From Neocallimastix sp. 'constans' (taxonomy: Eukaryota): DNA of 64,000 nucleotides. The notes under the pieces were generated by a model. It saw only the letters and a program-made list of their open reading frames with translations. It searched no databases and was not told the origin of the DNA. Shown here piece by piece: positions 13,520-40,232 of this stretch. Within the stretch, counting starts at the first letter, position 1, and each line of letters begins with the position of its first letter. The stretch is from assembly GCA_050613775.1 (NCBI GenBank), contig JBODTK010000102.1, forward strand, positions 496,001-560,000, given 5' to 3'. Both the position numbers and the translations under genes were made by a program.

Positions 13520-13524
13520 CAAAA

Positions 13525-14504
13525 TGTAAGAATCTATAATTATTTTTAAATAAAATAATTATATTTTCTTAGGTAAGTTATAATAATTATTATTTTATTT
13601 AATTATATTATATTTATTTATTAAAATATTATTAATAATTTATTTAATTCAATTTTAGATATTCATTAATTTAATATAACAAAATTTAATTAATTAATTA
13701 TTATTTATACATTTATAAATAATTATAGTTTATTTAATTATACATTTAATTATTAAATTTATTAGTCTTATTTTATTTATTTAATTAAATTTTAAACAAA
13801 CACATTGTGTTTTCTATTATGTATTGTATTATGTATTTAATAATGTATTTTGTATTTTGTTTATTAATATTATTAATATGATATTTTCCTTATTTGTAAA
13901 TTTATGATTTTATGTAGAAATATCTATTATTATTTTATTCTTTTATTTTCAATCAATTAGATTAGAATAGTGAAACGGTTAATTAAGGTTTTTCTCAATC
14001 ACTTCTTAAAAGTAATTGGTTTTACCTAATTGATACGATGATCGATATGGATAGAATATCGATCAAAAGTTTTATATAGGTTTTTCTGTCTAATCTTTTC
14101 CTAGATAAGAAATTTGTTAAGATTAGAAAACGCTTTTTTTAATTTAACCTTACTTTTCAAAAAAGAATAAATAAGGCTCTTGAGTTCTCTTTGAGAAATC
14201 AAGAGTTATTATTATTACGATTATAATATAACAATTATAAAATAATAACAAAATTAAATATTTATATTTCTTATTTAATAAATTTTAAAATAAAAATAAA
14301 ATAAATAAAAAATTTTCTTCATAACAAATCCGTGTAACCTTTGGTATTTGTTTATTATAAATAGTTATAATAAACTCTTCAATATTAAGATAATTATAAA
14401 TATCTTATTTTATTTTACTCAATTTAATAATAATTTTTATAAAGTTATTATTAATTTGCAGTTAATAATTTAATTATAATTAATCTTATAATTAAATTAT
14501 TACA
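13525..14504 (+). mobile_element. Solo LTR, family A (same family as intact element 39186-46017)
   Basis: TGTAAGAATCTATAATT...AATTATTACA, collinear with 39186-40150; flanks CAAAA/CAAAG. Confidence 0.9.
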
Positions 14505-14513
14505 CAAAGAATC

Positions 14514-15066
14514 TGTAAAAGGTATGTCTATTATTAACTAATACAGGGAATAATAATTATTTTAAAGGCTAAAATATCTTAACACCTCTCTATTCGAGTT
14601 GTTAAAATAAATACTAAAATTAACTATAATTATTTATGTTATACACTTAAGAATATAGCGAAGCACTTTATAAGTTTATTTATTATTAGTTACTGGGATT
14701 ACACTAAGTTATTGTATTTATTTTTGATAATTAATTTTTATTTATTAATATTAATAATTATTTATAACAATTTACGTTAATAGTAATGCTAATACGTTAC
14801 AGTTATAAGTGCAATTATTTTTATACATGTAAATAAATTAATAATTGGTAAATAATTTAATTTAATATGAATTTCTAATCATTTAATAAAACTATATATA
14901 ACTAAATAACTATTAATAAAATAAACTATAAAATAATAAAATTTAATGTACGGAAATTAAGTAAAGATTTTATTTGATTAGTTAGAATTGCTTACTGTTT
15001 ATAGATACATTAGGTAACCAAAGAACTAACATTGGATAGGCTTAATGTTACCATGTATCTGTTACA
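14514..15066 (-). mobile_element. Solo LTR, family B
   Basis: Reverse complement of 16281-16830; TGTAAAAGG...CTGTTACA. Confidence 0.88.
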
Positions 15067-15067
15067 A

Positions 15068-15690
15068 TGGTACAGTATTGAAGAATTTTTATCATAAAAT
15101 AACATATTCTAATAACATAAGAATAAGAAAATTTTAAATACAATTCTCTTATTCAAATTCTATTATTCAAATTTAAAAATCTAAATATTAAATAGTTTAA
15201 ACTAAACTAAAATAACTAAAAATAATTTCTAACTTATTTTAAATAATTTAATTATTCAACTATAATTATTAACTCTAAATATTAAACGATAAAATTTTAA
15301 ATCACTTAAAAACAACACTAAAATTATTTTTAATTTAATTTTATTTAAAATAAACTATTTTATTTTTATTATTTAATCTATTCTAATTTTATTATTTAAA
15401 CTATTCTAATTTAATTAATTAAACTAACTTTATTTTATTTAATTATCTAAAATTTATTATTTAAATTCTAATAAAGTAAAAGAATAATATAATAATAAAG
15501 TTGTAAGAAAAAGAGAGAAAGAACTAAAGTATTGTACTACTTTGTTCTTTTTATACAATTAAAATAGTTATTTGATTGGATTAGATTTAATAATAAAATT
15601 TAATAAACTACTAAAATATTATTAAGTATTACAATATTAAATAAAAATAATAATACATTTATTGAATTTACTATAACTAATTTTATAACA
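15068..15690. mobile_element. Truncated LTR, family C
   Basis: Starts TGGTACAG and is collinear with 26971-27630; 3' end replaced by a family J fragment. Confidence 0.75.
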
Positions 15691-16274
15691 AGATTGGTAT
15701 TTATAAATTTTATTTAAAATAAGGTTAAATTTAAAAAGAGATTCTAATCTTAACAAATATCTTGTTTAGGAAATGATTAGAATAAAAACCTAAGCAAGCT
15801 TCAATCAATATTCTATTAATATCGATTTTCGTATCAATTAAGTAAAACAGAATACTTTCTAAAGTAATCGGGAAAATCTTATAAGACCTATTTCCTAAAT
15901 TTGAACTAACAAAAAGCTTACAACAAATTTAAAGGAATTATTTAGAACTAAGCCATAAAAAATTTATTAAATTATCTGATCATGATACGTAAATCTTAAT
16001 TTAATTATTGTACTATGGCTTTAAAGTAATAAATAATTAAACTAAACTAATTATAAAAAAAAATACAGAATTAAAAATACAGAATTAAAAATACAGAAAC
16101 TATTCACTTTTAATTTATGTATAAAGCTATATAAAATAAAAAATTTATAATTTAAATAATTAAATGTATAACTAAATAAAATTTATAATTTAAATAAATG
16201 TATCTAATGATTGTCATTACTAAAATAATAAATAATGATAATTATTTTTTAATAAATAATTATTATTTCTTACA
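15691..16274 (-). mobile_element. Partial LTR, family J-like (U3 part)
   Basis: Ends AATAATTATTATTTCTTACA, the reverse complement of the start of 25164; carries the conserved U3 boxes. Confidence 0.7.
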
Positions 16275-16280
16275 CAAAAT

Positions 16281-17900
16281 TGTAACAGATACATGGTAAC
16301 ATTAAGCCTATCCAATGTTAGTTCTTTGGTTACCTAATGTATCTATAAACAGTTAGCAATTCTAGCTAATCAAATAAAATCTTTACTTAATTTCCGTACA
16401 TTAAATTTTATTATTTTATAGTTTATTTTATTAATACTAATTTAGATATATATAGTTTTATTAATTTATTAGTAAATCAGGTTAAATTAATTTATTACCA
16501 ATCATTAAACTATTTATATGTATAAAAATAGCTGTACTTGTAATCGTAACGCATTAGCGTTTCTATTAACGTAAATTGTTATAAATAAGTATTAATATTA
16601 ATAAATAAAAATTAATTATTAAAACTAAATAAAATAACTTAGTGTAAGCCCGGTAACTAATAACAAAGAAAGTTATAAAGTGCTGTGCTATATTCTTAAG
16701 TGTTTAAAATAAATAATTATAGTTAATTTTAGTGTTTATTTTAACAAATCGAATAGAGAGGTGTTAAATTATCTTAGTTTTAAATTAATTAAATTCCCTG
16801 TATTAGTTAATAATAGATTTACCTTTTACAATAGTAACTCTTTATAATTAAATAATCGATAATAATTAAATAAAATTTAAAAGTAAGTAATAATTTAATT
16901 GATAAAATAGTTAAGTTTTTATTAAATAAAAATAGCAAGTCTTAGTACTTTTAATATTATATTAAAAGTTTATTTATTTTCTTTCTTTACTCATCTTTGT
17001 TTACTTTTTAAAAAAAATTTTGAAATGAATTTTACGCCACAATATGTTGTGAGCAAATCACGAAGAATTTCAAAAAAAAAAATTTTTCTTCTTTAAATTA
17101 AATTTTGATTAAAAATTTAAAAATATGAAATTATAAAAATTTCGTATATCAGAAATTTAATTTATTAATAATTTAAATATAAAAAATTATTTAAATTAAA
17201 AATTTAAAATTGTTGTTAGTACAGATTTTTAATTAATAAAAATTTTGTATTTCACTAAATAAAATCTTCTTTTGCTATCTAAGAGGTCATTTATTATATA
17301 AATTTATATATATAGTGACTCGGGAAGCGAAAGAAAATTTTTTAAATAATAATTTATTTAAATTATTAATACTTATATATTTAATTTTTCAAAAAAAATT
17401 TAATTTTTATTTTATTTCTTTTATTGATTTTTTTATTTATACTTATAAAAAATAAGTGAACATATATATATCAACTAAATAAATTTAAATAAGTGAACGA
17501 ATCAATAATTATTTAGTTAAATATAATTAAGTGAATACATTAATACAAGTTAAATAAAATTATAACAAAAGTAAATGGATAAAAAGAGCAAAAATTCCAA
17601 ACCACCAGATAATACGAGAAAAACCACAAGGAGTGGTTCTTTAAAAAGTTCGGTGGGTAGTGTGGTCGCAGAAAATAGCCCTACGCCTGTTTAAGATCCT
17701 TCAGCTCGACACCAGAATACAGGAGACAATAAAACAACAAGTACTCCTGAGAAGCCAGCTGCGGTGCCTGATGCTAAGAAACCTGAAGCTAACAAGCCAG
17801 AAACAAGTAAACCGGAATCTGGTAAGCCGGGACCACCCAAGGAATGAGCTCAAGTAAAAATAATAATGGTGAAGCTATATATTTTGCTGCTTTACTGAAT
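16281..17900 (+). mobile_element. Gypsy family B 5' fragment: 5' LTR (16281-16830), PBS-like ATAGTAACTCTT, leader and start of gag
   Basis: LTR TGTAACAG...CCTTTTACA; the gag start near 17575 (MDKKSKNSKPP...) is homologous to the minus-strand 52170-52490 region. Confidence 0.8.
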
Positions 17901-19424
17901 AAATAGTAATAAAGAATTTATGAATTAATTATTTATTTTATTTATATTATAATCTAATTAAATTATTAACTTTTAAGTCTTTTTAAAACAACAAATATAT
18001 ATAGCATTATTTAGCATATAAAGTTGAACTGGGCTTTCTACTGGTTGTTATGTGGCGGACTTAATAATCATATGGTGTCCAGCCAACCTCTGCTGGTATC
18101 TATTCTTGATCTGATTTTCCCGATAGGGTTTGGAGAAAGGGTAAAGGGGTTATAATGGCACGATTTCAGGTAAGTATTAATTCCGCTCCTACCATTATTG
18201 GATTGCCACATATTTAATCTCTATATTTGATCACATATAGTATCCTAGTGTAGTTGTATAGCCTATACTGAGAGGGTTACGAGTTCAATTTCTATAGGAT
18301 GGCATGGATGTTATTTTGCAAGACATGTCTACTGGAGCTACCTCTGCTTAGGAATTTGGAGCGCCGACGTCGTACTGATATAATATAAGATATATATATC
18401 AAAGTATATATGTTCTTTACACGCCCATATATATAATATGGGATAGACATGTAAATTCATATGTGTAAAAAACCTATTTATATAACTCTACAATACGGTT
18501 GCGATAATACATAAATAGTAATTGAAATGTGAACAACAAATTTTAATTTTTGAAATTTCAATTTACAGTTATAATTTATGTCTTATAAAAATATTATTTT
18601 GTAATTCTTATTATTATTTAATATTTTATTTATAAATTATTTATAAAATAAAAGGTTTAATCCTATTATTAAGATGTTATAATAACAACTAAAGTTTTAG
18701 TTATAATATAAAAAATTATTATTTTAAATAATATTAATTTAAATATAAATTTATAAAATAAAATTTTTTAATAATAAAATATAAAAATATTATATTGATA
18801 TTAATAATAAAATATAAAAATTTAAAAATATAAAAATATAATATTAATAGAAAAATATAAAAATATAATATCAATAATAAAATATAAAATATAAAAATAT
18901 AATTTAAATATTAATAATAAAATATATAAAAATAAGGTTATAAGGAAAATAATTATTTATCATTTTCCTTATAACATGATTGTCAAAAAAAAAATTATAT
19001 AAAAATATTTTATTTTTTATTGACCTTTTTAATTTTTATTTATTTATTTATTTACTTATTTATTTATACATTTATTTCATTTTTACTTAAAATTATATTA
19101 AATTTTATGGGCTAATAATATAAATTTTAAAAGACACAAATAAATAGATGGCATATTAAAATTTCAAAAAAAAAAAATTGGCGTTTTGGACCACATTCTA
19201 ATTTCAATATGTTAATAATATTTAGTCAATTAGTTGGCCTAGACTATTTCTTTAATAATTTAATAATAATTATTATATTATTAATTATTAATATTGAAAT
19301 TCAAATAACTGAATTATTAAAATTGAAATTGATTTTGAATTAAATGAAAATTCAGTTATTATCTTAACAAACCTTCATTTTTTTTTACCAAAATCTTATT
19401 TTAATAGTGGTATCGTATCATAAT

Positions 19425-20188
19425 TGTTAGAAATTGAAATAAAAATTCTTTTATAGCAATTTCTAATCCACAATTTTATTTTAATAATAATATTATTAAT
19501 TAAAATTGGGAAATTTTAAATTTGTTTTATTAAAAAAAAAATCGAGTTTATTATAAGAAAATTTAATTTATTTATTTTATTTTACCAATAAAAAAAAATA
19601 AATAAAAATTATTTTAAAATAAAAAAATTTATTATTATTATTAATATTTTAATTTATAAAATTTTATTGTTATTATTATTTTTCTTATAATAATAACTCT
19701 TGATTTTCGAAAGGAAACTCAAGAGTCCATTTTATATTTTAAAATATAGAAATAAAGAATTTTCTAATCTTAACAAAATACTTTCCAGGAAAAGATTAGT
19801 AGAAAAACCTGGAAAGATTTCAACCAATAATCTATACTTATTGGTTATCGTATTATTAAGTAAAACCATTTTTATGGAAAAACCTTAATAACCGATGTTC
19901 TAAATTACGTAAGTTAAACGGTTAAATTAATTCACACTTTAGCAATTTAACCAAATTAACTTATGAATAAAATTAAGAAAAATAAAAAAAATAGATACGG
20001 AACCGAATATAGAAATACATACAAAATAAATACAAAATGTATTTAATAAAATTTAATATATAATTTAATAAAATTTGTTACATTATTAATAATTAATTAA
20101 TTATAAAATTAAGTAAACTTAATAATTATTTTATAATTATTAACGATTAAGAAATATAGACTTATAACAATACGTCTAATTTCTTACA
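19425..20188 (-). mobile_element. Solo LTR, self-priming gypsy superfamily
   Basis: TGTTAGAAATT...AATTTCTTACA termini; ATAATAACTCTTG..CAAGAG hairpin near 19690; AAAAGATTAG box. Confidence 0.8.
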
Positions 20189-20194
20189 AGAATA

Positions 20195-21049
20195 TGACAC
20201 GAGCTGGGGTTGAAACACTAAGATATTCAAAACAAAAAAATAAATATTACCACATAACTATAAAAATAAATTTGGAAACAAGAAAAAATTAAATTTTAAA
20301 ATATTCCTTATTTAAATTTAAAATTAAAATTATTTGTTCCCCGTATTAAAAAGAAAGAAATTTCTTTTTCTTTTTATACTTTTATTTTAAAACATTTTAT
20401 TTATTATTAATATATTCTTTATAAAAAAAATTATTATAACTATTTTATTTTAATTTTTAACTATTATTTTAAATTATTTTTAAAAAAAATAACATTTATT
20501 AAATTAAAATATAAAAATTAATTTAGAAATTGTATCACGAAGGGCATTCCAGGCGGTAGCTTCTTCTTGATATTGTTTTCAGAGAGAGTATTATACAGAA
20601 TTGATATTTTCTGTATTTTAGATCATTTTTATTATTGAAATTCTTCTGTATTTTAGTTCATTTTTATTTTAATAAAGATTTAATTTATTTTTGATTTTTG
20701 TTTTATTTTTAGTTTATTTCAAAGGTTTTAGAAAATATTATACAGAAACTTATAAATCTGTATTTTATATCAAATATTTATTGAAATAGGTTTTTATTAT
20801 ACTTAATATAAAAATAAGAATTAGTAATGATTTAAATTATATATAGTTTTTAATAAGAATATTTAGTAATAATTTTTATTATATTTAATATTAATAAAAG
20901 AATTTTATATGAATAATTAATAATAATTTTTATTATATTTGATATTAATAAAAGAATATTTAATAGTAAAATTTAATAATAGTTTTTATTTTATAATTAT
21001 TAAGAGTATTTAATATGAAATACAAGGTATTTAGTGACACCCCGTATCA
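20195..21049. mobile_element. Solo LTR, family D
   Basis: TGACACG...CGTATCA; collinear with 27749-29588. Confidence 0.85.
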
Positions 21050-21052: not shown

Positions 21053-21284
21053 TGGTAGACTCGGGGTTGTATTTTAATATATACATATATTTAATAATAT
21101 AACAATAAAGTAATTAATTAAAATTGTTTTAACATTATTTACAAGTTAAAATTAATTTATATCAAAATAAATTAATTTTTATTATTAGGTTTAGGTTATC
21201 AAGAATATAGGAAAGTACAATTTAGTAAAAAATTATTAATAATATTTTATAATAAAATAAAGGTTATTAATTCATTCTTTACCA
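21053..21284. mobile_element. Short solo LTR (232 bp), family E
   Basis: TGGTAGA...TTTACCA inverted termini, AATT on both sides. Confidence 0.65.
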
Positions 21285-21287: not shown

Positions 21288-22250
21288 TGTAATAATTTAA
21301 TTATAAAATTAATTATAATTAAATTATTAACTACAATTCAATAATAACTAAATAATAATTTTTATTAAATTGAGAAAGCAAAAAAGATAAATATACTTAT
21401 CTACTATAAGAAAGAGTTTATTATAACTAATTGTAATAAACAAATAACACAGAATTGTCAAAGAGAAAAGATTATTTTATTTTATTTTATTTTTAAATTT
21501 GTTTTATTGAAACTTACTTTATTAAAATAGAAATATAAAATATTTATTAATGTTATTACTATATTATAACTGTTATAATAATAACTCTTGATTTCTCAAA
21601 GAGAATTCAAGAGCATTATTTATACTTTTTTGAAAAATAAGGTTAAATTAAAAAATGTTTTCTAATCTTAATAAATCTCTTATCTAGGAAAAGATTAGAC
21701 AGAAAAACTTAGATAAGATTTTTAATCGATATTCTATCCATATCGATCATCGTATCAATTAGGTAAAACCAATTACTTTTAAGAAGTGATTGGGAAAAAC
21801 CCTAATTAATCGATTCGCTAATCTAATCTAATTGATCGAAAATAAAAGAATAAAATAATAAAAGATATTTCGATCATAATATCATAAATTTACAAATAAG
21901 GAAAATAACATAATAATGATATTAATAAACAAAATATAGAATGCATTATTAAAATACATAATAGAATACATAATGTGTTTGTTTACAATTTAATTAAATA
22001 AATAAACTAAGACTAATAAATTTAATAATTAAATGTATAATTAAATAAACTATAATTATTTATAAATGTATAAATAATAATTAATTAAATAAATTTTGTT
22101 ATATTAAATTAATGAATATTTAATATTGAATTAAATAAATTATTAATAATATTTAAATGAATAAATATTATATAATTAAATAAAGTTATAATTATAACTT
22201 ACCTAAGAAAATATAATTATTTTATTTAAAAATAATTATAGATTATTACA
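21288..22250 (-). mobile_element. Solo LTR, family A
   Basis: Reverse complement of 39186-40150; perfect CAAAT TSD (21283-21287, 22251-22255). Confidence 0.92.
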
Positions 22251-22256: not shown

Positions 22257-22712
22257 TGGTACGTGATTGTACCTTGGGCTTATTGACACTACTCTAGTTA
22301 AGATAAATTATTCTATATTGAATAAACACAAAAATTAATAATTTTTATTTATTTATTATTTAAATATTTTTTTATTATTATTTTATTAATATTTTTTTAT
22401 TTATTATATTACTTAATTATACATTATTTTAATTACTACATTTTTATTATAATCTAACTAACTATATATTTTTATTTCTTATTATATCTCTTCTATACTA
22501 CATATTTTTATATCTTTTTCCTTTCATATTCTTTTCTTTCTAATCTCTTTTCCCCTTTTATAAATATTTTCTTATTTAAATCTTTTTATATTCCTTTTTT
22601 TATCTAATTTAAGGTTATAATTGTTTATTTCTTAAAAATTTAAATATTTAATCTTATAACTTTATTCTCAAATTTATTGCTTATTTCATTGTTATCAGGG
22701 CGGCCCGTACCA
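22257..22712. mobile_element. Solo LTR, family F
   Basis: Perfect 7-bp inverted termini TGGTACG...CGTACCA, AATT 4-bp TSD. Confidence 0.75.
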
Positions 22713-22716: not shown

Positions 22717-23629
22717 TGTTGAGGTTCGGGACAGATTAATAGTAAATATAAAAATAAACACTAAAATAAAAAAAAATTAAAAATTAAAATATATCTTTTT
22801 TTAAAATATTTTATTTATTTATATAATAAAAATTATTCAATTAAAACTAAAGATAATTTAATTTCTTGAATAAGATTATATTTTTCAAAATTATTTTTCT
22901 CAAATACAATTTTCTCATCTATTTATATTTTTTTTTATCGTTAGAAATGATCAAGCCATTTCTTTAGAATATTTTAGAGTTACATATTTGAATTGTATTT
23001 TAATTATAAATTCATAATCTATTCTATTATAATAAATAATTATTATATATTATTAAATTCTAAACTATTTATTATTAATTGTAGTGATAATATATATTAA
23101 AAATAATTTTATTACTTTTACAGAACTATTAGTAATAGAGTATTATTTAATTTTATACTATTTTTAAATAAAAGTATTTTAGATTATTATCTATTATTAA
23201 TCTTATTATAAATAGGGTGTATTTTGGAAGGAAGTATTACTAATTTTAATGACAAGGATCATGGATTTAAGTAAAATATTTTTAAATCATTATTAATTAT
23301 ATTAATTTTTATTAATAATAAATAATCTGTATTAGTAATATTTGTTAAATTTTCTTTAATAATAAAATATTGATATAATAAATCATATTAATAAAACTAG
23401 ATATTGATAATAATATTGATATTAATAATATAGTATTAATTTTAATAATAAAGTATTGATATTGATAAAGAATTTATATTAATAATAATAATTTTAATAT
23501 TTGTAATAATTTGGCTGTAATAGAACGTAAGAAAGTTCTCCAAGTAAGGAAATAAATAATTTAATTTTAGTGGTTAAGTTATTTTTATGAAAAATAATAA
23601 AATTAACATTATTTGTTCATTCCTTAACA
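22717..23629. mobile_element. Solo LTR, family G
   Basis: TGTTGAGG...CCTTAACA termini, AATT 4-bp TSD. Confidence 0.75.
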
Positions 23630-23633
23630 AATT

Positions 23634-24554
23634 TGTAAGAATCTCTAATTAAAAAAAAGATATTTTATAAGAGTTTTCTTTTATTATTTTTTTTTTTATT
23701 AATTCTATATAAAGTTTGAGTTTATTATTAAATAATATAATAAAGAAAAAATACTTATATTGGGGTAAACTAAAGTAGAGAAAGTAGAGAAAGTAGAGAT
23801 ATTATATATGAATATATATATATATTATTTAAAAAAACACAAAATTTTTTAAGAAAAAGTATTTTTTAGAAAATTTAAATTTTAAGTAATTATTATTTTA
23901 ATATTTCTTTATTAATATTTTATTTAATAATAATAACTCTTGATTTCTGAAAAAGCAGAAATCAATCGTTATTTTATACTTTTTTGTTTATTAATTAACC
24001 TTAATTTATAATATTTATTTATTTCTGTCATATGTTTATTTAATTAATAATTATTTAATATAAAATATTAATTATTTCTTGGCTAAGCTATTGATTGCTA
24101 GTCAGCTGTTGTATCTTCAGGAAAAGACTAGAAGAAAAACCTGAAGATTTCTTAATTGTAATAATATTAGAACGAATTATATTTCAAGGAAATTTATTAT
24201 TTAATTTATCTAATAATATTGTAAAAATAATTTTAAAACATTAAATATTAAATCTATTATTTAATTTATTTATTATTTAATATTATTATGAAAATAATTT
24301 TAAAACATTAAATATTAAATCTATTATTTAATATATTTATTATTTAATATTATTATGATAATTGTTTGAAATAATTTTAAAACTTTGACTATTAAAGTTT
24401 GCTATTAATTTATGGCTTAAATTTTAATTTATCATAATTTAATAATTTTGTATATGAGTCAGCGATATTAATAATTTACCTAAAATTAATTTAATAAAGT
24501 TTAGTAATAAAATAAATGATAAATATAATAGAAAATATTTCTATATTTCTTACT
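23634..24554 (-). mobile_element. Solo LTR, family H (self-priming superfamily)
   Basis: TGTAAGAA...TTCTTACT termini; ATAATAACTCTTG near 23930; flanks AAATT/ATATT; internal ~68-bp duplication at 24220-24380. Confidence 0.75.
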
Positions 24555-24559
24555 ATATT

Positions 24560-25159
24560 TGGTACAGGACTTTTGAAATTGATGGATGTATAATAATATA
24601 TTGGTAAATAGATAGTGGACATATTAAAAGTACTAGAAACTTATATAATATTTATTTATTTATTTATTTACTATTTATTAATTTATTTATTTAAAAATTT
24701 ATTTAACTATATATTTATTAATCCATTTATTTATTTGTTCATTTATTTATTTATTCCTCCATCACATAAAAAAAAGAAAAGAGAGATTTAAAATAATATT
24801 ATTACAAAATATTTTATAAATTTTGGTAAAACATTGATTAGTTAAAAATAATTTTGTGTAAGAATAAAATAATAATAAAATTTTAGATATGAATATTGAT
24901 AATAAAAATAATAAAAAGTTTACAATATAAAATAAAATTTATCAAATGTATAATAAAAATATAATAAGAATATAATAAAATATTTATTTTATATCAAGAT
25001 ATTAATAATTAATAATATATATATTTATATAATAGTAAAAGAAATATTGATAAATTTAATAAAGATAATAATTAATTAATAAAATAGATTTAAAACATAC
25101 TTATATGGAGAAATGTTAAAATTATTATAATTTAAGGTATTTGAGTAAATACCGTATCA
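24560..25159. mobile_element. Solo LTR, family I
   Basis: TGGTACAG...CCGTATCA termini, TATT 4-bp TSD. Confidence 0.72.
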
Positions 25160-25163
25160 TATT

Positions 25164-26137
25164 TGTAAGAAATAATAATTATTTATTAAAAATAATTAAT
25201 ATTTCTTAGTCTTTATAATTATTGATAATAATTATAAATTTATTTAAATTATAATTAATTCATACATTGAAATATTATTATCAAATTTATTATAATTATA
25301 ATTATTCATACACTTAAATAATATTAGAAATTTTATTTAAATAATTATTATATGTACACTTATTAATATTATTAATTTTATTTAGTCATTCATTTAATTA
25401 TCAAGTTAATGTAAACATTAGTTTTATTTATTTTTTACATTGTACATTTAGAAGAACAATTAATAAGTTTCTGTATTTTTTATAATTCTGTATTTTAGCT
25501 TAAAGATAGTTTTATTTTAATAAGTTTAGATTAGATTTTAAAACTAATATTTAGAAAAATAGAATAATTTAGATCATTCCGGTTTTTATTGATTTTTCCC
25601 TTTTATTTGATGATCTAAATTAAAATTTAGAAAATCGATATATTAAGGTTATATCCAAATATAAAATAATATATTTGGTTTTACTTAATATATACGATGA
25701 TCAATATGAATAGAATATCGATCAAAAAACTTATCTAGTTTTTTCTTCTAATCTTTTTCTAGATAAGATATTTTTAAGATTAGAAAACCCTTTTTATTTA
25801 ACCTTATTTCCATAAAAAAATATAAATAAGGCTTTTGATTTCCCTTTAAGAAATCAAGAGTTATTATTATAAAAATATAGTTTATAATAGTAACGATTTT
25901 ATATTTTGAACTTTAACAAATTAATAAAATATTTTATTCAAAAAACATACTTTAAAAATTAAATTTATACAAATCTTTCTTCCTTCTTATTTTTCGTGTT
26001 ATTATTATAATTAATTTTATAATAAACACCACAAATATTTAGGTAAAACTTTTTTTTATTTTCTCAACTTAATGAATTAATCGTTAAGTTGAAGTTAATA
26101 ATCATATTAAGTAATAGTACTTAGTATGATTATTGCA
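25164..26137 (+). mobile_element. Solo LTR, family J (self-priming superfamily)
   Basis: TGTAAG...ATTGCA, perfect ATATT TSD, TATAAATA plus hairpin plus AAGAGTTATTAT at 25821-25870. Confidence 0.85.
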
Positions 26138-26143
26138 ATATTA

Positions 26144-26969
26144 TGGTACAGAATTGAAGATTATAAAAAAAAATAATATATTCTAATAATTAAAAATTTA
26201 ATTTTTCACTAACAAAATAAATATTATTTTAACTATTCTAATATAAATAACTTAAATAAATATTTTAATAAAATTTATCTCTAAATTAAAACTAAATTAC
26301 CTAACAAATTTAAATATTTAAACTAACCAAAATTATTTTTATCCTTAACTATAATAAAACACAAAAACAAAACTAATCGATTTAACTAGAGAACAATTTA
26401 ATTTTATTTAATTATTTATTTAATTATTTATTTATACTAATACTAAATATTTACTATTTCATTCTCGAAAAATTAAAAGAAAAATATAAAAATAAAGTTG
26501 AAAGAAGAGGAAGAACTAAAGTATTGTTTTACTTTGTTCTTTTTATATCTTTAAAACATTTATTTGATTGGAGTAAAAATAAAAATATAAAATATAATGA
26601 AAATATAATAACAAAAAATATAATAATTTTATAATAATAAAATATAATAAAATATAACTTTAATATAATATTTAATATAAGATAATAATAAAAATATAAT
26701 AAGGTATAATAAAAATTTTATAATAAAAATATAAAATAATAATAAATATAATTTTAATTATTTATAATAAAATATCTAATTGTTTACTATTACAATATTA
26801 AATAAATACAATTAATACATTATTTTAAATAATTTAGTTATTTATACATATTTAATTTCCTTATTATATATTTTAATACTTTAATATTTTATTCTTATTT
26901 ATTTATTAATTAATCTTTATAGTTTATTTAATTTTTATTTATTTTTTATTTATTATTTGTATCGTAACA
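26144..26969. mobile_element. Solo LTR, family C variant
   Basis: TGGTACAG...CGTAACA; shares the GAACTAAAGTATTGT..ACTTTGTTCTT and TGATTGG motifs with 26971-27745. Confidence 0.78.
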
Positions 26970-26970
26970 A

Positions 26971-27745
26971 TGGTACAGAACTGAAGAATTTTTATCATAA
27001 AATAATATATTCTAATAATTAAAGAAAATTTTAAATTCTATTCTATTATTCTAATCTATTATTCTAATTTAAAAATCTAAATACTAAACAATTTAAACTA
27101 AAATAAATTATTCAAAATTAATTTAACCTAATATAAATAATTTAACTAACAACTATAATTATTAAAACTATTAACCAAAAACTAAAAACCTTTAAACACT
27201 TAATACAAAACTTAAATTATTTTTAATTCTAACTTTATTTAAAATAAACTATTTTATTTTTATTATTTAATCTATTCTAACTTTATTATTTAAACTATAC
27301 TAATTTATTATTTAAACTATTTAAATTTAATTATTTAAACTAATTTTATTTTAATTTAACTATCTAAATTTATTATTTAAACTCGAAAATATCAAAAGAA
27401 TAATATAATAATAAAGTTGTAAGAAAAAGAGAGAGAACTAAAGTATTGTACTACTTTGTTCTTTTTTATACATTTAGAATAGTTATTTGATTGGATTAGA
27501 ATAAAAATTTAATAATAAAAATTTAATAATAAAAATTTAATAATAAAATATAATAAACTATTAAAATATTATTAAGTATTACAATATTAAATAAAAATAA
27601 TAATTAATACATTTTCTAATTTATTATAACTAAATTTATAATTATTTTAATATTTTAATATTTATTATTTAATTCCACTAATATTAATAATTTTTAATCT
27701 TTAATAATTATATATAATTTTAATTATTTTATTTGTTCCGTAACA
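26971..27745. mobile_element. Solo LTR, family C
   Basis: TGGTACAG...CGTAACA; collinear with 15068-15690. Confidence 0.82.
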
Positions 27746-27748
27746 ATT

Positions 27749-29588
27749 TGATACGGGCTGGGGTTGAAACACTAAGATATTCAAAACAAAAAATAAATAT
27801 TAACACATAACTATAAAAATAAATTTGGAAACAAGAAAAAAAATTAAATTTTAAAATATTCTTTATTTAAATTTAAAATTAAAATTATTTGTTCCCCGTA
27901 TTAAAAAGAAAGAAATTTATTCTTCTTTTTATACCTTTATTTTAATACATTTTATTTATTATTAATATATTCTTTATAAAAAAAACTATTATAACTACTT
28001 TATTTTAATTTTTAACTATTATTTTAAATTATTTTTTAAAAAAAAAAAAATAACATTTATTAAATTAAAATATAAAAAATTAATTTAGAGATTGTATCAC
28101 GAAGGGCATTCCGGGCGGTAGCTTCTTGATATTGTTTTTCAGAGAGAGAATTATACAGAATTGATATTTTCTGTATTTTAGATCATTTTTTTATTATTGA
28201 AATTCTGTATTTTAGTTCATTTTTATTTTTAATAAAGATTTAATTTATTTTTGATTTTTGATTTATTTTTAGTTTATATCAAAGGTTTAGAAAATATTAT
28301 ACCGAAACTTATAATTCTGTATTTTATATCAAATATTTATTGAAATAGGTTTTTATTATACTTAATATAAAAATAAGAATTAGTAATGATTTAAATATTA
28401 TATAATTTTTAATAAGAATATTTAGTAATAATTTTTATTATATTTAATATTAATAAAATATTTAATGATTATTTTTATTAGATTTGATATTAATAAAAGA
28501 TTTTAATAAGAATATTTAATAATAATTTTTATTATATTTAATATTAATAAAAGAATTTATAAGAATATTTAATAATAATTTTTATTATTTTTGATATTAA
28601 TAAAAGAATTTATAAGAATATTTAATAATAATTTTTATTATAAAAGATTTTAATAAGAATATTTAATAATAATTTTTATTATATTTAATATTAATAAAAG
28701 ATTTTTATTAGAATATTTAATAATAATTTTTATTATATTTGATATTAATAAAAGATTTTAATAAGAATATTTAATAATAATTTTTATTATATTTAATATT
28801 AATAAAAGATTTTTATTAGAATATTTAATAATAATTTTTATTATATTTGATATTAATAAAAGATTTTAATAAGAATATCTAATAATAATTTTTTTATTAT
28901 ATTTGATATTAATAAAAGACTTTAATAAGAATATTTAATAATAATTTTTATTAGATTTAATATTAATAAAAGAATTTTATAAAAATATTTAGTAATAATT
29001 TTTATTATATTTAATATTAATAAAAGAAATTTATAATAATATTTAATAATAATTTTTATTATAAAAGATTTTAATAAGAAAATTTAATAATAATTTTTAT
29101 TATATTTAATATTAATAAAAGATTTTTATTAGAATATTTAATAATTTTTATTATATTTGATATTAATAAAAGATTTTAATAAGAATATTTAATAATAATT
29201 TTTATTATATTTAATATTAATAAAAGAATTTTATAAGAATATTTAATAATAATTTTTATTATATTTAATATTAATAAAAGATTTTAATAAGAATATTTAA
29301 TAATAATTTTTATTATATTTAATATTAATAAAAGAATTTTATAAGAATATTTAATAATAATTTTTATTATATTTAATATTAATAAAAGAATTTTATAAGA
29401 ATATTTAATAATAATTTTTATTATATTTAATATTAATAAAAGAATTTTATAAGAATATTTAATAATAATTTTTATTATATTTGATATTAATAAAAGATTT
29501 TAATAAGAATATTTAATAATAATTTTATTTTATTATTATTAAGAGTATTTAATAGGAAATACAAGGTATTTAGTGACACCCCGTATCA
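27749..29588. mobile_element. Solo LTR, family D, with internal minisatellite expansion
   Basis: TGATACGGG...CCCGTATCA 9-bp inverted termini; collinear with 20195-21049; AATT TSD. Confidence 0.88.
28410..29525. repeat. ~54-55 bp AT-rich tandem repeat, about 20 units
   Basis: Repeated AATAAGAATATTTAATAATAATTTTTATTATATTTAATATTAATAAAAGATTTT. Confidence 0.9.
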
Positions 29589-31630
29589 AATTGTAAGAAA
29601 TTACTTATAAAATTAATTATAAATAATTTCTTAACTACGAATTAACACTAATTATTACTAATTAACATTAATTTGAGAAAATAAAATTAAATATAATTAA
29701 ATAAATATAAAATAATATAAATAAATAATTATACTTAACTTAAATATACGATAGAGTTTATTATAGAAAGTTTATAATAAACAATAACACAAAAGGAATA
29801 AAAGACACAAATATTTATAAAATACGTTTTATTAAAAAGGGTTTTGTTTATTAATTAATTATTTTATTTGAATTATTATTTATTATAAAAATTCTAAAAT
29901 AATAACTCTTGATTTCTTGAAGAGAACTCAAGAGAATCAAAAATATATAAATTAATAATTAAATATTATTGGTTAAAATAAATACAATAATTTAATGTAT
30001 TAAATTAATGTATTAAATAAGAAAGATAGATAAATTTTATAAATTTATCTAAGTTTCTTACATTGCTCCCTTTACTTAATGAATTTGTATAAATTCATTA
30101 TCATAAAAGAAGTAGTAAGTTTAAAATGAAAATTATAATTAACCAAAAAAAAAATATAAAATTATATAATTTATTGAAAGTTTTGCTAACCTTAACTTTT
30201 TTACATCTAGAGAAAAGATTAGCAGAAAAACTCTAGACGAATCAATATTAAGTAAAACCAATTAACTTGGGAAAACCTTAATATTGTTTTCTAACTAATA
30301 TAAGTGAATAAATAATTATAAATTAAATAAAATAAATATAATTACTAAGTGTATAAATAAATATAAAGTTAAATAAAATGACTATATTATTAAATGAATA
30401 AATAAATATTAAATTAAATAAATTATAATAACTAAGAAATGTAAATGAATTATTAATAAATTTATTTGAATTTCTTACATTGCTCCTTTTCATTTGAATT
30501 ATTCAATGAAAGAAGAACAATTTAAGAAATAATAAATTAAGAAATATTAAAAAGAAATAAAATTTAAATAAAATTAAAATAAATATTTAATTGCAATTTC
30601 AATTTAAAAAATTGAAATTTAAATTTTGAATTAAAATTTATTTTAAATAAATAATTAAATGAACAATAATTTATAAATTTATATTATATATTATATATAT
30701 TTTGTATTAATAAATAAATAAATAATGATAATAATTAATTTTACAATATATATATATTGTATATTATTCATTAAATGAATAAAAATAATAATAATAATTT
30801 GAATTTTAAATATAATTTTTCATATATATTAAATAAATAAATAATAATAATAATTTATAATTTTATATTATATTTATCTTTATATTATTCATTAGATGAA
30901 TAAGTAAGTAATAATTTAAATTATACATATGTATTATTTATTAAATAAATAAATAATAATATTTTATAATTTTTTTTTTTTTTTTTTTTATATATATTAT
31001 ATTTTATATGTATAATTATACAACAAATAAATAAATATAATTTATAATTTAATTATTTACTATTATTACACAGTAAATAAATAAAAGATCATATTTTTAG
31101 TTTATTTACTTTATATAATATTTATTTTTATTATTCAATAAACAAATGAATAATATTAATTTATAATTTTATATTATAAATATTATGTATATCTACTTAA
31201 ATAAATAAATAAATAATAATTTAAAATTTTATAATTTTTATATTATATTTTATTTATAATTTTTTTTTAGTGTATAAGTTTATACATAAATATGAGAATT
31301 ACTCTCATAATATTACATGTAGAAATTAAATATATAATTAATAATAAATTAATTTTTAGACACATTAATGTTTATATAATTAAATAATAATTTAATTTAT
31401 TTATATTATAGATATTTTATTATTTATTAATATATTTTTTATGAAAATAGAACTAAAGAAAAACATATTCATTTAGAAAGCTTTTATACATGAATATTAT
31501 TTATTAAATTAATTGATTGGTTAATATAAAATGAAATATAGTAAATATATTTTAACACTCCTCCTCAAATGTAACTTCGTTTCAATATTACATTTGTTTA
31601 ATTTTAACTATATTTTTTAGAATTAAAATT

Positions 31631-32947
31631 TTAAATCCTCAATTTTATATAATAAAGAATTTCTGAAATTTTCATAAGAGTGTTATTCAGATATTTAGTG
31701 AATCCATCGGCCAAATTATTTTGAGATTGAATATATTCTAATTTTATAAAATTTTTATTTATTATTTCTCTAATATAATGAATTCTTATATCAATATGTT
31801 TTGTCTTCGGATTAATGGATTGATTTTTGCTGTTGAATATGGCAGCTTTGTTATCTATTTTTATTTTAATACATTTAATATTATAATATAATTCTTTCAT
31901 TAAGTTTAAATACCAAATGCAGTGCTTGCCACATTCACTCAGACTATAATACTCCGATTCTGCAATAGATGTTGACACACAGTGTTGTAGCTTGGAACAC
32001 CAGCTAGTTGGTGCGTTGCCCATGGTTACTAAAAAACCTGTTGTTGATCTTCTGGTTTCAGTATCTCCTGCAAAGTCGGCATTAACAAAGGCTTCTATTC
32101 CTAGTTTCCTTGTATAGTTTATCCCGTAACTCGTTGTTACTTTAAGATATCTTAGTATTCGTACGACATTGTTCCAGTCTTCCATATTCGGATTATTTGA
32201 TTTTCGTGCTGCTTTACTTACCGAAAATAGAATATCAGGTCTGGTGCATATAGCAATGTAGAGTAAATTTCCTATTGCACTTCGGTAGGTAGTTTGATTA
32301 AACTTTATATTTCTAAGTTTGTCGTCCGTAATTGGTTTTGTATTCCTTAATGGTTTTTCATTATTCATATTGATTTTCTCTAAAACCTCTATAATGTATC
32401 TTCTTTGATGCATAAAATATCCATTTTTGTGTTTAAAAAATTTTATTCCGATAACGAAATCCACATCGCCAATTTCTTTTATTTTATATTTTCTTTTGAA
32501 ATATTCTTTTATAATTTTAATTTCATTCTCTTTTCCAGCGATTAAAATATCTTCAACATAAATACCGACGATACATAAAATGTTTTTATTTTTATCATTT
32601 TTTACATATATACATGGTTCACTTACCATTCTTCTAAGTCCTATTTTAGTTAAGAATTTATTAATTTCTTTATTCCATTCTCGTCCGCTTTGTTTCAGAC
32701 CATATATAGCTTTGTTTATTTTCCAGAATTTTCTATTAAAATCTTGGTGACCTTCTGGAGGTTTCATATAAATATATTCACTTAATTTGGTATTAAGATA
32801 AGCAGCGTTTATATTAATTTGTTCTATATTAAAATTATTTTGGGCAGCAATTGAAGTTAAAATTCTGATAGAGTCGTGTTTTAACGTTGGTGTAAAAGTA
32901 TCATGAAAATCTATTCCAAATTCTTGGGTAAAACCTCGTGCTACCAA
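31631..32947 (-). CDS. pol: Copia reverse transcriptase / RNase H fragment (probably inactive)
   Basis: LVARGFTQ, KAIYGLKQSGREW, YVED (YVDD expected), FVNADFAG (D to N), STSIAESEY, TKHIDIR, LADGFTK. Confidence 0.9.
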   Translation of the reverse strand: MVARGFTQEFGIDFHDTFTPTLKHDSIRILTSIAAQNNFNIEQININAAYLNTKLSEYIYMKPPEGHQDFNRKFWKINKAIYGLKQSGREWNKEINKFLTKIGLRRMVSEPCIYVKNDKNKNILCIVGIYVEDILIAGKENEIKIIKEYFKRKYKIKEIGDVDFVIGIKFFKHKNGYFMHQRRYIIEVLEKINMNNEKPLRNTKPITDDKLRNIKFNQTTYRSAIGNLLYIAICTRPDILFSVSKAARKSNNPNMEDWNNVVRILRYLKVTTSYGINYTRKLGIEAFVNADFAGDTETRRSTTGFLVTMGNAPTSWCSKLQHCVSTSIAESEYYSLSECGKHCIWYLNLMKELYYNIKCIKIKIDNKAAIFNSKNQSINPKTKHIDIRIHYIREIINKNFIKLEYIQSQNNLADGFTKYLNNTLMKISEILYYIKLRI

Positions 32948-33395
32948 TCTTGCTTTTCTTTTTGCTATCTTGCCATTCGCATTTCTTTTATATTTGAAAA
33001 TCTATCTTGAGGAAATTACATTTGCATTTTTGGGTATATATTTAATTGTATTAAATACATTTAAGTTTTTCATATTACTTAATTCTTCATTTACTACATT
33101 AATTCATTTTTTTCTATCAGTAAAATTTTGAATTTCTTATAATTTTCTGATTCTCTTAAAGTATTTATTGTCTTTCTTCTTTTGTTATTATTTTCATTTT
33201 TTATATTCATAGTTGTTTTTTTATTATTGTTTTCGATATTATTTAATTTAAATGAATTGTTATTAGTCAATAAAGTATTTATAATTTCGTTTCCATTACG
33301 TTGAATATAATTTTTATTGATAATTGTGTTGTCATTTACTCTGCTGCTTTCAATATTATTATTGTTATTGATTATTTTATTGGCTGTATTATCAT

Positions 33396-35126
33396 TTATT
33401 TATTATTATTATCTTCTCTATTTTGGCTATTATTATTATTTTCAATATTATTATTATTAATTCTAATTTTATTATTACTATTATTTGTATTATTATTATT
33501 AATATTATTTGTATAATTATTATTATTATTATTTATATTATTATTATTGATAAAATTATTATTGGTTATGTCATTATTATTAATTTTATTATTGTTTATA
33601 TTATTATTATTATTTGTATTATTATTAATGAAATTATTGTTATGATTATTATTATTGATATTTTCATTGTTATTGTTACTATTATTGTTACTGTAATTAT
33701 TATTTCTTTGTTTTTTGTTATATTTTCTTTTATTCTTAGAATTATTTTTATTGATTATATCTTCGTATATATTTTGTATATTGCTATTATTTAATATTGT
33801 TGAATTTCTTAGGATGTTTTCTGAATTAAAAAATTCATTAGAACTTGGATAATCAATTTTATTTAATCTTTGTTGAATATTATGATTAATGTTATATGTA
33901 TTGGTATCGTATGTATTTTTATTATAGTATGTATTATATGTATTATTTCCCCTGATTTCGTGATCCGGAATAAAATTGGAAAATTCAGGTGAGCATTCTT
34001 TAAGATAACTGTTTCCAGGATTGGATTCGAAAAAAGCAACAGATCTAGATAGGATTATTTTATTAGTAGTAATATCTAAAATTTTGTTAGCTGATGGATT
34101 TTCAGAGTATCCTAGAAAAATCCCTGGTTTAGTATTGTTATCGATTTTAGATCTAAAGACTTTAGGAATAAAGAAATAAACTTTGCATCCAAATACTTTA
34201 ATATTTGAATAGTTGACCTTTGTTTTGTTAATTATTTCATAAGGTATTTTCATATTTATTCCTTTGTGTGGAATGCGATTATGTATATAATTAGCAGTAG
34301 AGGTAGCATCTTCCCAAAATTGGTGACTAAGTTTAGAGTCATTCAGCATAGCTTTGGCGGAATTAATTAGGGTGCCATTGAATCGTTCCACCCTTCCATT
34401 TTGTTGTGGGTTATATGGTACAGTTAGCTGATGTTTGATACCATAAGATTTAAAGAATAAATTAAAATTATTATTGCAAAATTCTGTACCATTATCCGTT
34501 CGAATATATATAATTCTAGTATTATACTTATTTTTAATACTTAAAAACCAATTGTAAAATGAGTTAAAGGTGTCACTTTTAGATTTTAAAAACAAAGTCC
34601 ATCCATAGCGTGAATAGTCATCGAGGATTGTAAAAAGATATTTGTTACCATAAAGTGATTCAGGAAGAGGTCCAACCAAGTCCATGTGAAGTAATTCAAA
34701 TATATGTTTCGACTTATTTATTGCTTGCTTATATGGTTTTTTTTTAAGTTTTGAATTCATACAAATTGGGCATTGATTAACTGGTGTATTAAGTTTTAAT
34801 AATTTGTTTTTAATATGACTAATATCAAAATGACATAATCTTCTATGCCATAAATTTAATATTTTTGCTGCATTTGGTGTAGTGAAATTTATTTCTAAAT
34901 TATTATGTTGATTGTTATTATTATTGAGATTTATTTTATTATTGGAAAACCAAATTTTAAATGTATTAGTCTTGGTTGCAGTGATGTTAACTATTCTTTT
35001 ATCATTGCTATCGTAAATGATTGAATATGATTTATTATTTGAATTATTAAAAACAATTTTATAATTTTCTTTTAGTAATTTGCATATAGATATTAAATTT
35101 TTATTGATGGCTGGAGAGTAGTACAC
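33396..35126 (-). CDS. pol: Copia protease C-terminus, GAG-pre-integrase, integrase, SH3-like domain, then Asn-rich linker
   Basis: LWHRRLCH, HMDLVGP, IRTDNGTEF, PQQNGRVER, FGCKVY, GIFLGY; stop codons separate it from RT. Confidence 0.92.
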   Translation of the reverse strand: MYYSPAINKNLISICKLLKENYKIVFNNSNNKSYSIIYDSNDKRIVNITATKTNTFKIWFSNNKINLNNNNNQHNNLEINFTTPNAAKILNLWHRRLCHFDISHIKNKLLKLNTPVNQCPICMNSKLKKKPYKQAINKSKHIFELLHMDLVGPLPESLYGNKYLFTILDDYSRYGWTLFLKSKSDTFNSFYNWFLSIKNKYNTRIIYIRTDNGTEFCNNNFNLFFKSYGIKHQLTVPYNPQQNGRVERFNGTLINSAKAMLNDSKLSHQFWEDATSTANYIHNRIPHKGINMKIPYEIINKTKVNYSNIKVFGCKVYFFIPKVFRSKIDNNTKPGIFLGYSENPSANKILDITTNKIILSRSVAFFESNPGNSYLKECSPEFSNFIPDHEIRGNNTYNTYYNKNTYDTNTYNINHNIQQRLNKIDYPSSNEFFNSENILRNSTILNNSNIQNIYEDIINKNNSKNKRKYNKKQRNNNYSNNNSNNNNENINNNNHNNNFINNNTNNNNNINNNKINNNDITNNNFINNNNINNNNNNYTNNINNNNTNNSNNKIRINNNNIENNNNSQNREDNNNK

Positions 35127-35223
35127 CTCATTAAGTATTACTTCATTGTTGTTTACATACTCCTTAAATTTTCCTTTATGGACAGCTGTAATTATTTGTC
35201 CATTAGCTAGATTAATTTCTTCA

Positions 35224-36435
35224 TTACATTTTTTTTATGTCTATTAGAAGATTAAGATTGCTTGTGATATTGATTGAAGCACCGGAGTCCAAAATCCAAC
35301 ATGAAAGAAAGTTTTTGTCACTATCTTCATTTAAAAATTCTTTTTCAATGTTGCAGTAATTTAATTCAATATTATTTTCTGTATTACAATCTTTAGTAAA
35401 GGCATCTGCGTATATTGTGTCATAATTACTTGAAGAGGCATCATTAGTGTTCACATAATTAATATCGTTTTGAAATTTTCTTTTGTTTTTAGTTCTTTTA
35501 TTAAATTTATTTTTGTTTTGATTTTTATATAAATTATTTTTTCTGAATTTACATTCATAGAAGTAATGTCCTGTTCTTCCACAATAGTTACATCTTCCAC
35601 TACTCCTTTTGAGACTTTTTCTTTTACCTTTAGTTCTATTATTGTTTCGATAATTCTTGCTCTTTCTTGTTTCAGCATTGAAGAGAACATTATTGTTGTT
35701 TTCCTGAATGGAATTTTTTTCTTTTAAATTAGATAAAACGATATTAGGGATGATTTCCTTAACATAGGTGCAGCATGATTCCCAACTCTTATGTTGAAAG
35801 ACGTTTATCCACCTTAGATCTTCAGGTAAGCATCTATTTAGAATGCCGATTTTTGTATTTATACTAAGGTCATTGTCAATTTTCTCAAGTTCGTCTATTA
35901 AGTTTTGCAAATTGGCAATGAATATATTTATATCGGTCTTGGTGTCAAACTTCATTGTTTCAATTTTGTTTTGGATTTCGATTTTTCTTCTTTCCTTGCT
36001 TTTGGTAAACGATTCTTGGAAGATGTTCCAAATTTGAAAAGCGGTCTTTTCATTTCCATTTATTAGTTTTTGTGTTTGTTCTCCAAGCCCATTTATGATA
36101 ATCCATTTGGCCGTGATGTCGTTAGTTATATCAATGTTTTTAGTGTTCTTTTCATAAACTAACGAACTATCAAATTGATCCTCCGGGTAATCTGTTAATT
36201 CTTCTCTTATATCTCTCTTTCTTAACTTCTTTACAATTGGATGAAGGACATATTTGGTTAATTTATTTATTGTTAGCAAATACAGAATTTTTCTTCTCCA
36301 ACCAGGGTAGTTTTCTGTATTTAGTTCAGTAATTTGGTTGAAATTTTCGGAATAATTAAAGGTTATTCCGTTATGTGTAATATCTTCTCCGGTGAGGTTG
36401 ATAACTTGTTCTTGGTTTCTTCTTCTTCCAGCCAT
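35224..36435 (-). CDS. gag: Copia Gag with CCHC zinc knuckle and protease N-terminus
   Basis: CNYCGRTGHYFYEC zinc knuckle; WILDSGAS protease motif. Confidence 0.92.
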   Translation of the reverse strand: MAGRRRNQEQVINLTGEDITHNGITFNYSENFNQITELNTENYPGWRRKILYLLTINKLTKYVLHPIVKKLRKRDIREELTDYPEDQFDSSLVYEKNTKNIDITNDITAKWIIINGLGEQTQKLINGNEKTAFQIWNIFQESFTKSKERRKIEIQNKIETMKFDTKTDINIFIANLQNLIDELEKIDNDLSINTKIGILNRCLPEDLRWINVFQHKSWESCCTYVKEIIPNIVLSNLKEKNSIQENNNNVLFNAETRKSKNYRNNNRTKGKRKSLKRSSGRCNYCGRTGHYFYECKFRKNNLYKNQNKNKFNKRTKNKRKFQNDINYVNTNDASSSNYDTIYADAFTKDCNTENNIELNYCNIEKEFLNEDSDKNFLSCWILDSGASINITSNLNLLIDIKKM

Positions 36436-37859: not shown

Positions 37860-38215
37860 TTTATATTATTATTATTATTATTATTATTATATTATTATTA
37901 TTATTAAAATTACTTATTATTTGAAATTATTTAATTATTAAAAATAAAAATTTCAAATACTTATCTTTTTTAAATTATTTATTTATTTATTTAATTTATT
38001 TTGTTTATTTTTGTTTTTGTTTTTTGTTTTTGTTTTTGTTTTTTGTTTTTGTTTTTTGTTTTTGTTTTTGTTTTTATTTTTGTTTTTGTTTTTTTTGTTT
38101 GTTTGTTGCTTATTTTATTTTATTTTATTTTATTTTATTTTTTTTTTTTTTTAATAAGAAAATATATATATATAATGTATATAATGTATATAATGTATAT
38201 AATGTATATAATGTT
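37860..38215. repeat. Simple repeats (ATT)n, (TTTTTG)n, (ATAATGTAT)n inside element K
   Basis: Directly visible; they explain the low-complexity ORFs at 37744-38269. Confidence 0.9.
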
Positions 38216-40162: not shown

Positions 40163-40232
40163 ATCTAGAATAGATTAGTGTAGTACAAAGAAAATTTTAA
40201 ATAATACCAATATATTATTGAATTATGTAGTA

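Follow-up and report, generated by a model that had tools for sequence, protein, structure and literature searches.

LTR units abutting upstream of a tRNA-Val gene: an ordered insertion series that very probably preserves a base change in its target site and the later overwriting of that change

We examined a 64,000-nucleotide stretch of contig JBODTK010000102.1 (hereafter the window), in which about 21 units of the long terminal repeat (LTR) type abut one another upstream of a tRNA-Val(TAC) gene, between 12726 and 46017, with spacers of 1-9 bases. This was the only tRNA gene detected in the 64-kb window by Rfam and ARAGORN, and it is the fixed anchor of the stack. Its acceptor stem (46035-46041) opens with A, and G-U type pairs occur within the stem. 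Site positions were numbered from +1 = 46035, the Rfam start, which reproduces the positions used in a preliminary description of this DNA; ARAGORN places the start at 46034. The window is very AT-rich, most 1-kb bins having 9-30% GC, and retrotransposon remains fill it. Its DNA was found in 20 public runs, 12 of them feces metagenomes, and the gag of a copia element nested in the stack gave 24 matches, the two named ones being from Neocallimastix and Orpinomyces. The host is likely an anaerobic gut fungus.

The stack units were recognized as LTRs by TG..CA ends with terminal inverted repeats and by flanking duplications of 4-6 bp, which carry at most one mismatch in 13 of 14 cases. CA closes 16 of the 18 units scored, the exceptions being A1 and H. 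Only the elements called K and L are more than solo LTRs or deleted composites. As annotated with Pfam, K has gag, protease (PR), reverse transcriptase (RT), RNase H (RH) and integrase (IN) in this order between its two LTRs, the arrangement that defines a Ty3/Gypsy element. Several families recur in the stack (K three times, C three, D two, B two). Neither the start of W nor any unit left of A1 was found in the window. The coordinates are collected in Table 1.

Table 1. Units of the stack, their junctions and the anchor gene, from the far end towards the tRNA gene
Feature	Positions	Strand	Remarks
Older part of stack	12726-19420		partly deleted
A1	12726-13519
A2	13525-14504
B1	14514-15066
C0 and X	15068-16274
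B2, LTR	16281-16830		followed by internal sequence
W, end	19420
Y, solo LTR	19425-20188	-	left ATAAT, right AGAAT (-14 differs); further LTR end (W) before it
D', D-family unit	20195-21049		left AATA, right ATTA; marks -12 A>T
E, short solo LTR unit	21053-21284		AATT/AATT (-14..-11)
Km, K-family solo LTR	21288-22250	-	CAAAT/CAAAT; 4.4% substitutions from K
F, solo LTR	22257-22712		AATT/AATT (-14..-11)
G, solo LTR	22717-23629		AATT/AATT (-14..-11)
H, solo LTR of 5-bp class	23634-24554	-	left AAATT, right ATATT (-15..-11)
H right junction	24554-24559	+	terminal T (24554; family A), spacer ATATT; T at -14 = 24556, first T junction
I, solo LTR, high-copy family	24560-25159		TATT/TATT; probably minus orientation
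I/J spacer	25160-25163	+	TATT; T at -14 = 25160, second T junction
J, solo LTR	25164-26137	+	ATATT/ATATT; about 70% like K
J/C1 spacer	26138-26143	+	ATATTA; T at -14 = 26139, third T junction
C1, solo LTR	26144-26969		inserted at -13..-10 (ATTA); terminal A (26969) = new -14
Single A	26970	+	site position -13
C2, solo LTR	26971-27745		left flank fits ACAA (-16..-13); right reads ATT, three bases short or from a later C copy
D, solo LTR-type unit	27749-29588		internal tandem expansion; AATT/AATT, left A = terminal base of C2
L, two-LTR element	29592-39181	-	holds nested copia element; 5-bp duplication, -16..-12
L LTRs	29592-30062, 38708-39181	-	2 substitutions and a 3-bp indel between them
copia element nested in L	31349-37603		210-bp LTRs, 1 substitution
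K, full-length Ty3/Gypsy element, youngest	39186-46017	+	5-bp duplication, -17..-13; LTR pair and Pfam
K LTRs	39186-40150, 45053-46017	+	1 substitution between pair
K gag-PR	40951-42384	+
K RT-RH-IN	42446-45043	+
Present landing site	46018-46034	+	-17..-1; -14 = 46021 (A), -12 = 46023 (T)
tRNA-Val(TAC) gene	46035-46107	+	Rfam, ARAGORN

The flanking duplications that had been listed for the younger part, namely AATT at E, F and G, AAATT with ATATT at H, TATT at I, ATATT at J, ATTA to the left of C1 and AATT at D, were all found in the sequence. We then removed the elements in silico one at a time from the tRNA end, as had been suggested. A consistent site was restored at every step except C2: ten of the 14 elements (K, L, D, C1, J, I, G, F, Km and E) left no mismatch, and three left one each (H at -14, D' at -12 and Y at -14). 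The tRNA-proximal edges of the 13 elements that fit, of the 14 removed, lie at -10 to -13, the geometry of targeting to an RNA polymerase III (Pol III) start site. From D' to K (13 elements), nine duplications are perfect and the mismatches total seven, a total reached in 13 of 200,000 shuffles of the spacers and in none of 200,000 shuffles of the letters. When C1, the single A and C2 were merged as one unit, 10 of 12 duplications were perfect, a result that neither null reached in 200,000 trials. The older part, on a first parse, gave a clean duplication for A1 and one mismatch for A2. Three of four duplication mismatches fall at one position, which was not significant (P=0.086, with the register assumed for A2).

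The flanks also give the order of insertion. We observed directly that right flanks repeat the last bases of the left neighbour: K carries the terminal A of L, L the CA of D and Km the CA of E. Since bases of the left neighbour reappear in this way, the direction is fixed, and the youngest element adjoins the tRNA gene. Divergence within the K family grows away from the tRNA gene, from 0.1% between the two LTRs of K to 4.4% for Km and 9.8% for A2. The T-bearing junctions described below had been put forward as independent support for the order; they are only partly independent of the parse, and the borrowed LTR ends together with the divergence gradient are the stronger evidence.

Position -14 could be followed in register along the stack. 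We observed A at the E/Km, Km/F, F/G and G/H junctions, T at H/I, I/J and J/C1, and A again from C1 on. The A that follows C1 is its own terminal base, placed there by insertion at -13..-10; a 5-bp duplication for C1 was rejected, since the T would then have been kept. Three contiguous T junctions of 13 have P=0.038, and with the further demand that the run end at the single -13..-10 insertion, P=0.0035. Km has only 16 private substitutions in 963 bases; three separate T hits are therefore implausible, and one change inherited is the simple reading. The run of three thus supports the earlier proposal that A changed to T after H and was copied by the next two insertions, and C1 accounts for the replacement of the T by the terminal A of an LTR. 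Other states of -14 occur in the older part (G at 14509 and 20190, T at 19421), and onward copying of these was not seen.

The change at -14 had been called a point mutation. The A-to-T difference is there, although this term may be too simple, because two bases are changed at the right junction of H. The terminal base of H (24554, position -16) is T where its family has A, and the two changes together form an exact copy of a 7-mer lying 12 bp upstream, a match expected about 0.04 times within 30 bases. Judged from the sequence, they may be one templated two-base event. The last bases of H (24529-24554) also resemble 11706-11731 (25 of 26 bases), a hairpin-like stretch with an LTR-like end.

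It had been pointed out that the scheme would fall if the ATATT and TATT bases belonged to the LTRs. Family ends were taken from the copies in the window and, over the H/I junction alone, from public contigs. Among the four runs in which 24410-24635 was followed, depth rose from about 0-20 to at least 700 at 24560 in X1, X2 and X3, where many contig pieces start at this very base; X17 had no cover. In I-family copies elsewhere the letters before 24560 differ: in X1 they are the end of a K-type LTR and 5 further bases, in X2 a D/I-type end and 4 further bases. The differing letters and the rise in depth indicate that ATATT is not part of I. As these copies sit 4-5 bases after another LTR end, stacking occurs at other sites as well. 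The ends of I, J and C1 match their terminal inverted repeats and sister families or copies in the window.

The one junction that had been reported as misfitting was the single A at 26970. There is indeed a misfit in the C1/C2 region; it lies at the right flank of C2 and not at 26970. The A at 26970 forms, with the last three bases of C1, a 4-bp left flank ACAA (-16..-13); C0 shows this form too, the B1/C0 junction at 15067 being likewise a single A. On the right side of C2, ACAA is expected and only A is present. Most likely, C2 made a normal ACAA duplication from which a slip in the short ACA repeat then removed three bases, or C2 is a recombinant of two C copies that had inserted at different registers. 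C1 and C2 share their last 7 bases, and no recombination breakpoint was evident by eye in an alignment of C0, C1 and C2. An A precedes each of the three C elements, and we considered whether it belongs to them; this parse was rejected, as the inverted repeat opens with TGG and no duplication remains. Whatever happened at C2, the overwriting of -14 by C1 holds.

A further change was found at -12: of the junctions that extend over this position, the four older ones read A and the 11 younger ones all read T, the switch falling between D' and E. This A-to-T change, arising after D', was copied by every later element covering -12; it was never overwritten and is the present-day state. It bears out the suggestion that the older junctions (CAAAA at 12721 and 13520, CAAAAT at 16275, all of which are in the sequence) preserve an earlier version of the site. 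From D' to K, two changes (-12 and -14) provably arose next to the tRNA gene, in live bases, and none in the 46 spacer bases of copies already parked farther away. At a background of 1-4.4%, two or more changes in 8 live bases have P=0.003-0.049. Both fall in the divergence peak that lies 12-15 nt upstream of mature tRNAs and reaches 7-10 times background (Thornlow et al. 2018, PMC6130373, in the part available), which at n=2 is suggestive. A general excess of changes at tRNA-proximal LTR ends was not supported: A2 has 1 in its last 40 bp against 2.9 expected and B1 has 0, and the identity of D and D' over their last 33 bases likewise counts against such an excess. Only one change in Km (6 bp from its end) and the single difference within the 965-bp LTR pair of K, a derived T>A at 45990 (-45) in the tRNA-proximal LTR, lean towards it.

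Two classes of element share the site. An exact 12-mer complementary to the primer site of K is present in A1, A2, Y, Km, H, J, both LTRs of L and K, and these units fit 5-bp duplications. In D', E, F, G, I, C1 and D, which fit 4-bp duplications, the 12-mer was absent from the parts scanned. In K, all 12 bases after the 5' LTR are complementary to a stretch inside the LTR, the arrangement of self-priming Tf1/sushi/Tj1 elements, so that K looks self-primed from its sequence; a predicted fold of 39835-40175 paired the 12-mer stretch with nearer LTR sequence and not with the primer site. For the I family, two run-X1 contigs, read on the other strand, have a TGG-starting stretch that lies 7 bases beyond the end of the LTR and looks like a primer site of the tRNA type.

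The best PDB match of the K pol was Ty3 (7q5b, E 6e-141), in an alignment that stops at Ty3 residue 1447 of 1547. Only 9 residues follow the SH3-like part of the K integrase that aligns with Ty3, so that the C-terminal chromodomain-like part by which Ty3 contacts Brf1 is lacking, which sets K apart from Ty3 proper. The chromodomain PF00385, by which chromoviruses are recognized, was absent from relatives P0001-P0020, whereas most of those that come next, about 50% identical, carry it. In a tree (midpoint root; rows other than Ty3, Tj1 and DGLT-A), K and 14 relatives formed one group of 15 among 31 tips, with FastTree support of 0.85. Extensions past the end of K are at most 9 residues in all 15 members, as against 23-198 in the other 16 tips, 12 of which have a chromodomain. 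By analogy, this short-integrase group resembles DGLT-A of Dictyostelium and suggests a separate origin of tRNA-gene targeting. Searches with the K pol gave no match in viral contigs; in metagenome contigs they gave only distant loci (at most 51% identity, 80 kept), over which ARAGORN found no tRNA. An Atlas search gave nothing at or above 0.9. A tRNA pattern had 0 matches in metagenome contigs, and the stacked I copies elsewhere showed no tRNA on their loose contig ends.

We regard it as very probable that the families inserted in turn at a fixed distance from the tRNA gene, and that an A-to-T change at -14, made after H and before I, passed into the duplications of I and J before C1 overwrote it. 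Several Ty3/Gypsy families would have integrated successively 10-14 bp from tRNA-Val, each insertion pushing the older units away and duplicating 4 or 5 bases of the site in the state it had reached by then. The T would have arisen between the arrivals of H and I while that copy adjoined the tRNA gene, possibly along with the terminal A>T of H as one templated event; I and J would have copied it, and the terminal A of C1 would have replaced it. Every integration was presumably made by integrase, and full elements would have become solo LTRs by LTR-LTR recombination. The fixed distance may be set by tethering to a Pol III factor (TFIIIB or TFIIIC), as with Ty3, Tj1 and DGLT-A. Several points weigh against this reading. 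The duplication lengths used in the stepwise removal were set after the data had been seen, C2 failed (1 of 14), B1, C0/X and B2/W gave no clean duplication pairs, and the register of A1 and A2 presumes a B1 edge at -10. Targeting is seen at one locus, with one tRNA gene in the window, and tethering to Pol III factors is argued by analogy. At the H/I junction no contig of the four runs spans the site, so the junction letters are those of the window assembly alone. The X1 and X2 contigs match H exactly over 24410-24529 (120 bases) and then diverge, with letters absent from the window; the right end of H (its last 25 bases) may therefore be deleted or chimeric, its two flanks stemming from two events.

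H may also have had a different history, with insertion order and copying as described above. It would then have formed by recombination between two LTRs of its family, or between two alleles of the stack, and the T-bearing site would have come in with that exchange, the elements in between being lost. Flanks that fail to match usually mark a solo LTR formed by recombination, and those of H differ. Families do recur in the stack, the X1 and X2 contigs depart from H 25 bases before its end, and C2 needs a similar event. Against this, the flanks of H are equal in length and register and only one base apart, and the register is constant across H; we consider the recombinant origin unlikely, while giving it more weight than the remaining alternatives. 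Tandem formation by recombination of complementary DNA (cDNA) into existing copies, independent of integrase, is described for Tf1, whose tandems form by single-strand annealing (PMC11042837, in the part available). C2 stands directly behind the related C1 and has its last 7 bases in common with it. This route would, however, give same-family tandems sharing one LTR, whereas the neighbours here are mostly of unrelated families, in both orientations, with matching 4-5 bp duplications between them. The clean duplications rule it out for all units but C2, leaving C1-C2 as a possible exception, and for the stack as a whole it is highly improbable. Least probable of all is that the T arose separately at each of the three junctions, in copies already parked, or reflects errors of assembly. 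Position -14 varies in older junctions too and is perhaps mutable, and no contig confirms the junction letters. Three like hits at one register are nevertheless very unlikely given the few private substitutions of Km, and the T junctions form an unbroken series up to the insertion that overwrites the T; this explanation is close to refuted. The preliminary description is confirmed by these results, and its interpretation is supported with the amendments given above.

Other features of the window concern the individual elements. Within D, 28209-29558 is a tandem expansion of about 1 kb of an AT-rich unit that is short in D'. The 5' leader of K (40305-40658) has tandem units of about 110 bp, each ending in long A runs. 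Its gag-PR and RT-IN lie in different frames (42336-42446), whereas close relatives such as P0002 have one frame of 1347 amino acids; an 865-residue K product is on record from 13 contigs. At 16281-17762, B2 is a 5' LTR with a variant self-priming primer site behind it, and its internal part matches a second copy at 52288-53373, which leads into decayed gag-pol sequence at 48600-52400. A second copia copy at the left of the window (914-4274) is 91.5% identical to the one nested in L. Decayed Ty3/Gypsy pol remnants at 8034-10378, 57701-58692 and 62582-62928 are at most 52% identical to the K pol. A repeat family of about 330-480 bp occurs at 53926-54435, 56107-56785 and 59884-60347, in both orientations and with two copies head to tail.

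Fixed-distance insertion makes a pile of dead LTRs an ordered archive, of the order in which families were active and of earlier states of the tRNA start region, with the parked copies as built-in controls for changes at the live site. Read across many tRNA genes, such archives could separate the live Pol III start site from integration repair as the cause of the 12-15 nt peak. A further origin of tRNA-gene targeting, apparently not reported before, is also suggested by the locus; its genome is large and repeat-rich, not compact, and the integrase lacks the domain used by Ty3. A wider generalization, possible and tentative, is that at least two integrase lineages of gut fungi (one 5-bp and self-primed, one 4-bp) converge on a 5-bp Pol III start window and build long ordered stacks, each a tape recorder of a tRNA 5' flank whose bases at -12 to -14 mutate about ten times faster than parked ones. 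The mutation-rate point rests on two events at one locus. If true, it would allow the transcription-initiation explanation of the tRNA-flank mutation peak to be tested within one chromosome.

The comparisons that follow refer to the accessible portions of the papers cited. Ty3 of Saccharomyces cerevisiae makes a 5-bp duplication with its tRNA-proximal end less than 20 bp from the mature tRNA (PMC6673722), and the C-terminal chromodomain part of its integrase contacts Brf1 (bioRxiv 2021.07.27.453949). K shares with it the Ty3/Gypsy domain order, its best PDB match and the 5-bp duplication close to a tRNA; it differs in having no chromodomain part and in looking self-primed, and about 21 units of many families share the one site here. 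Tj1 of Schizosaccharomyces japonicus (Tf1/sushi) is self-priming, makes a 5-bp duplication, inserts just upstream of tRNA genes and clusters with them in repeat-rich regions (PMC4600332). It resembles K in primer site, duplication length and position, but its host belongs to another phylum, and the site examined here is shared with elements of a second class, whose duplications are 4 bp. The accessible part of that paper describes neither end-to-end stacks in insertion order nor copying of the site; the centromeres of S. japonicus may hold similar stacks. DGLT-A has a chromodomain-less integrase related to chromoviruses and inserts 13-33 bp (mean 15) upstream of tRNA genes (PMC5006619). It is like K in integrase and in insertion upstream of a tRNA gene and differs in being drawn with a tRNA primer site; its binding of Tfc4 through RNase H (PMC6101501) is a feature of DGLT-A.

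Nested Ty1 delta remnants also pile up upstream of yeast tRNA genes (PMC7175516). They do so within a window of about 1 kb and by nesting inside older LTRs, whereas the units here abut in a 5-bp window, which is why the insertion order is readable. Thornlow et al. (2018) compared species and populations; the changes at -12 and -14 lie within their peak, and here a single chromosome shows, one after another, the states that the site passed through. Among tRNA-targeting LTR elements, the part shown of a table in PMC5911963 has only those of yeasts and Dictyostelium. A literature search over titles and the starts of abstracts, with most subscription papers outside its reach, gave no tRNA targeting in gut fungi and no deep multi-family stack whose order had been read from its duplications. 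Ty3, Tj1 and DGLT-A already provide examples of insertion at the Pol III start region, and it is the depth of the stack, the mix of families and the readable record that are unusual.

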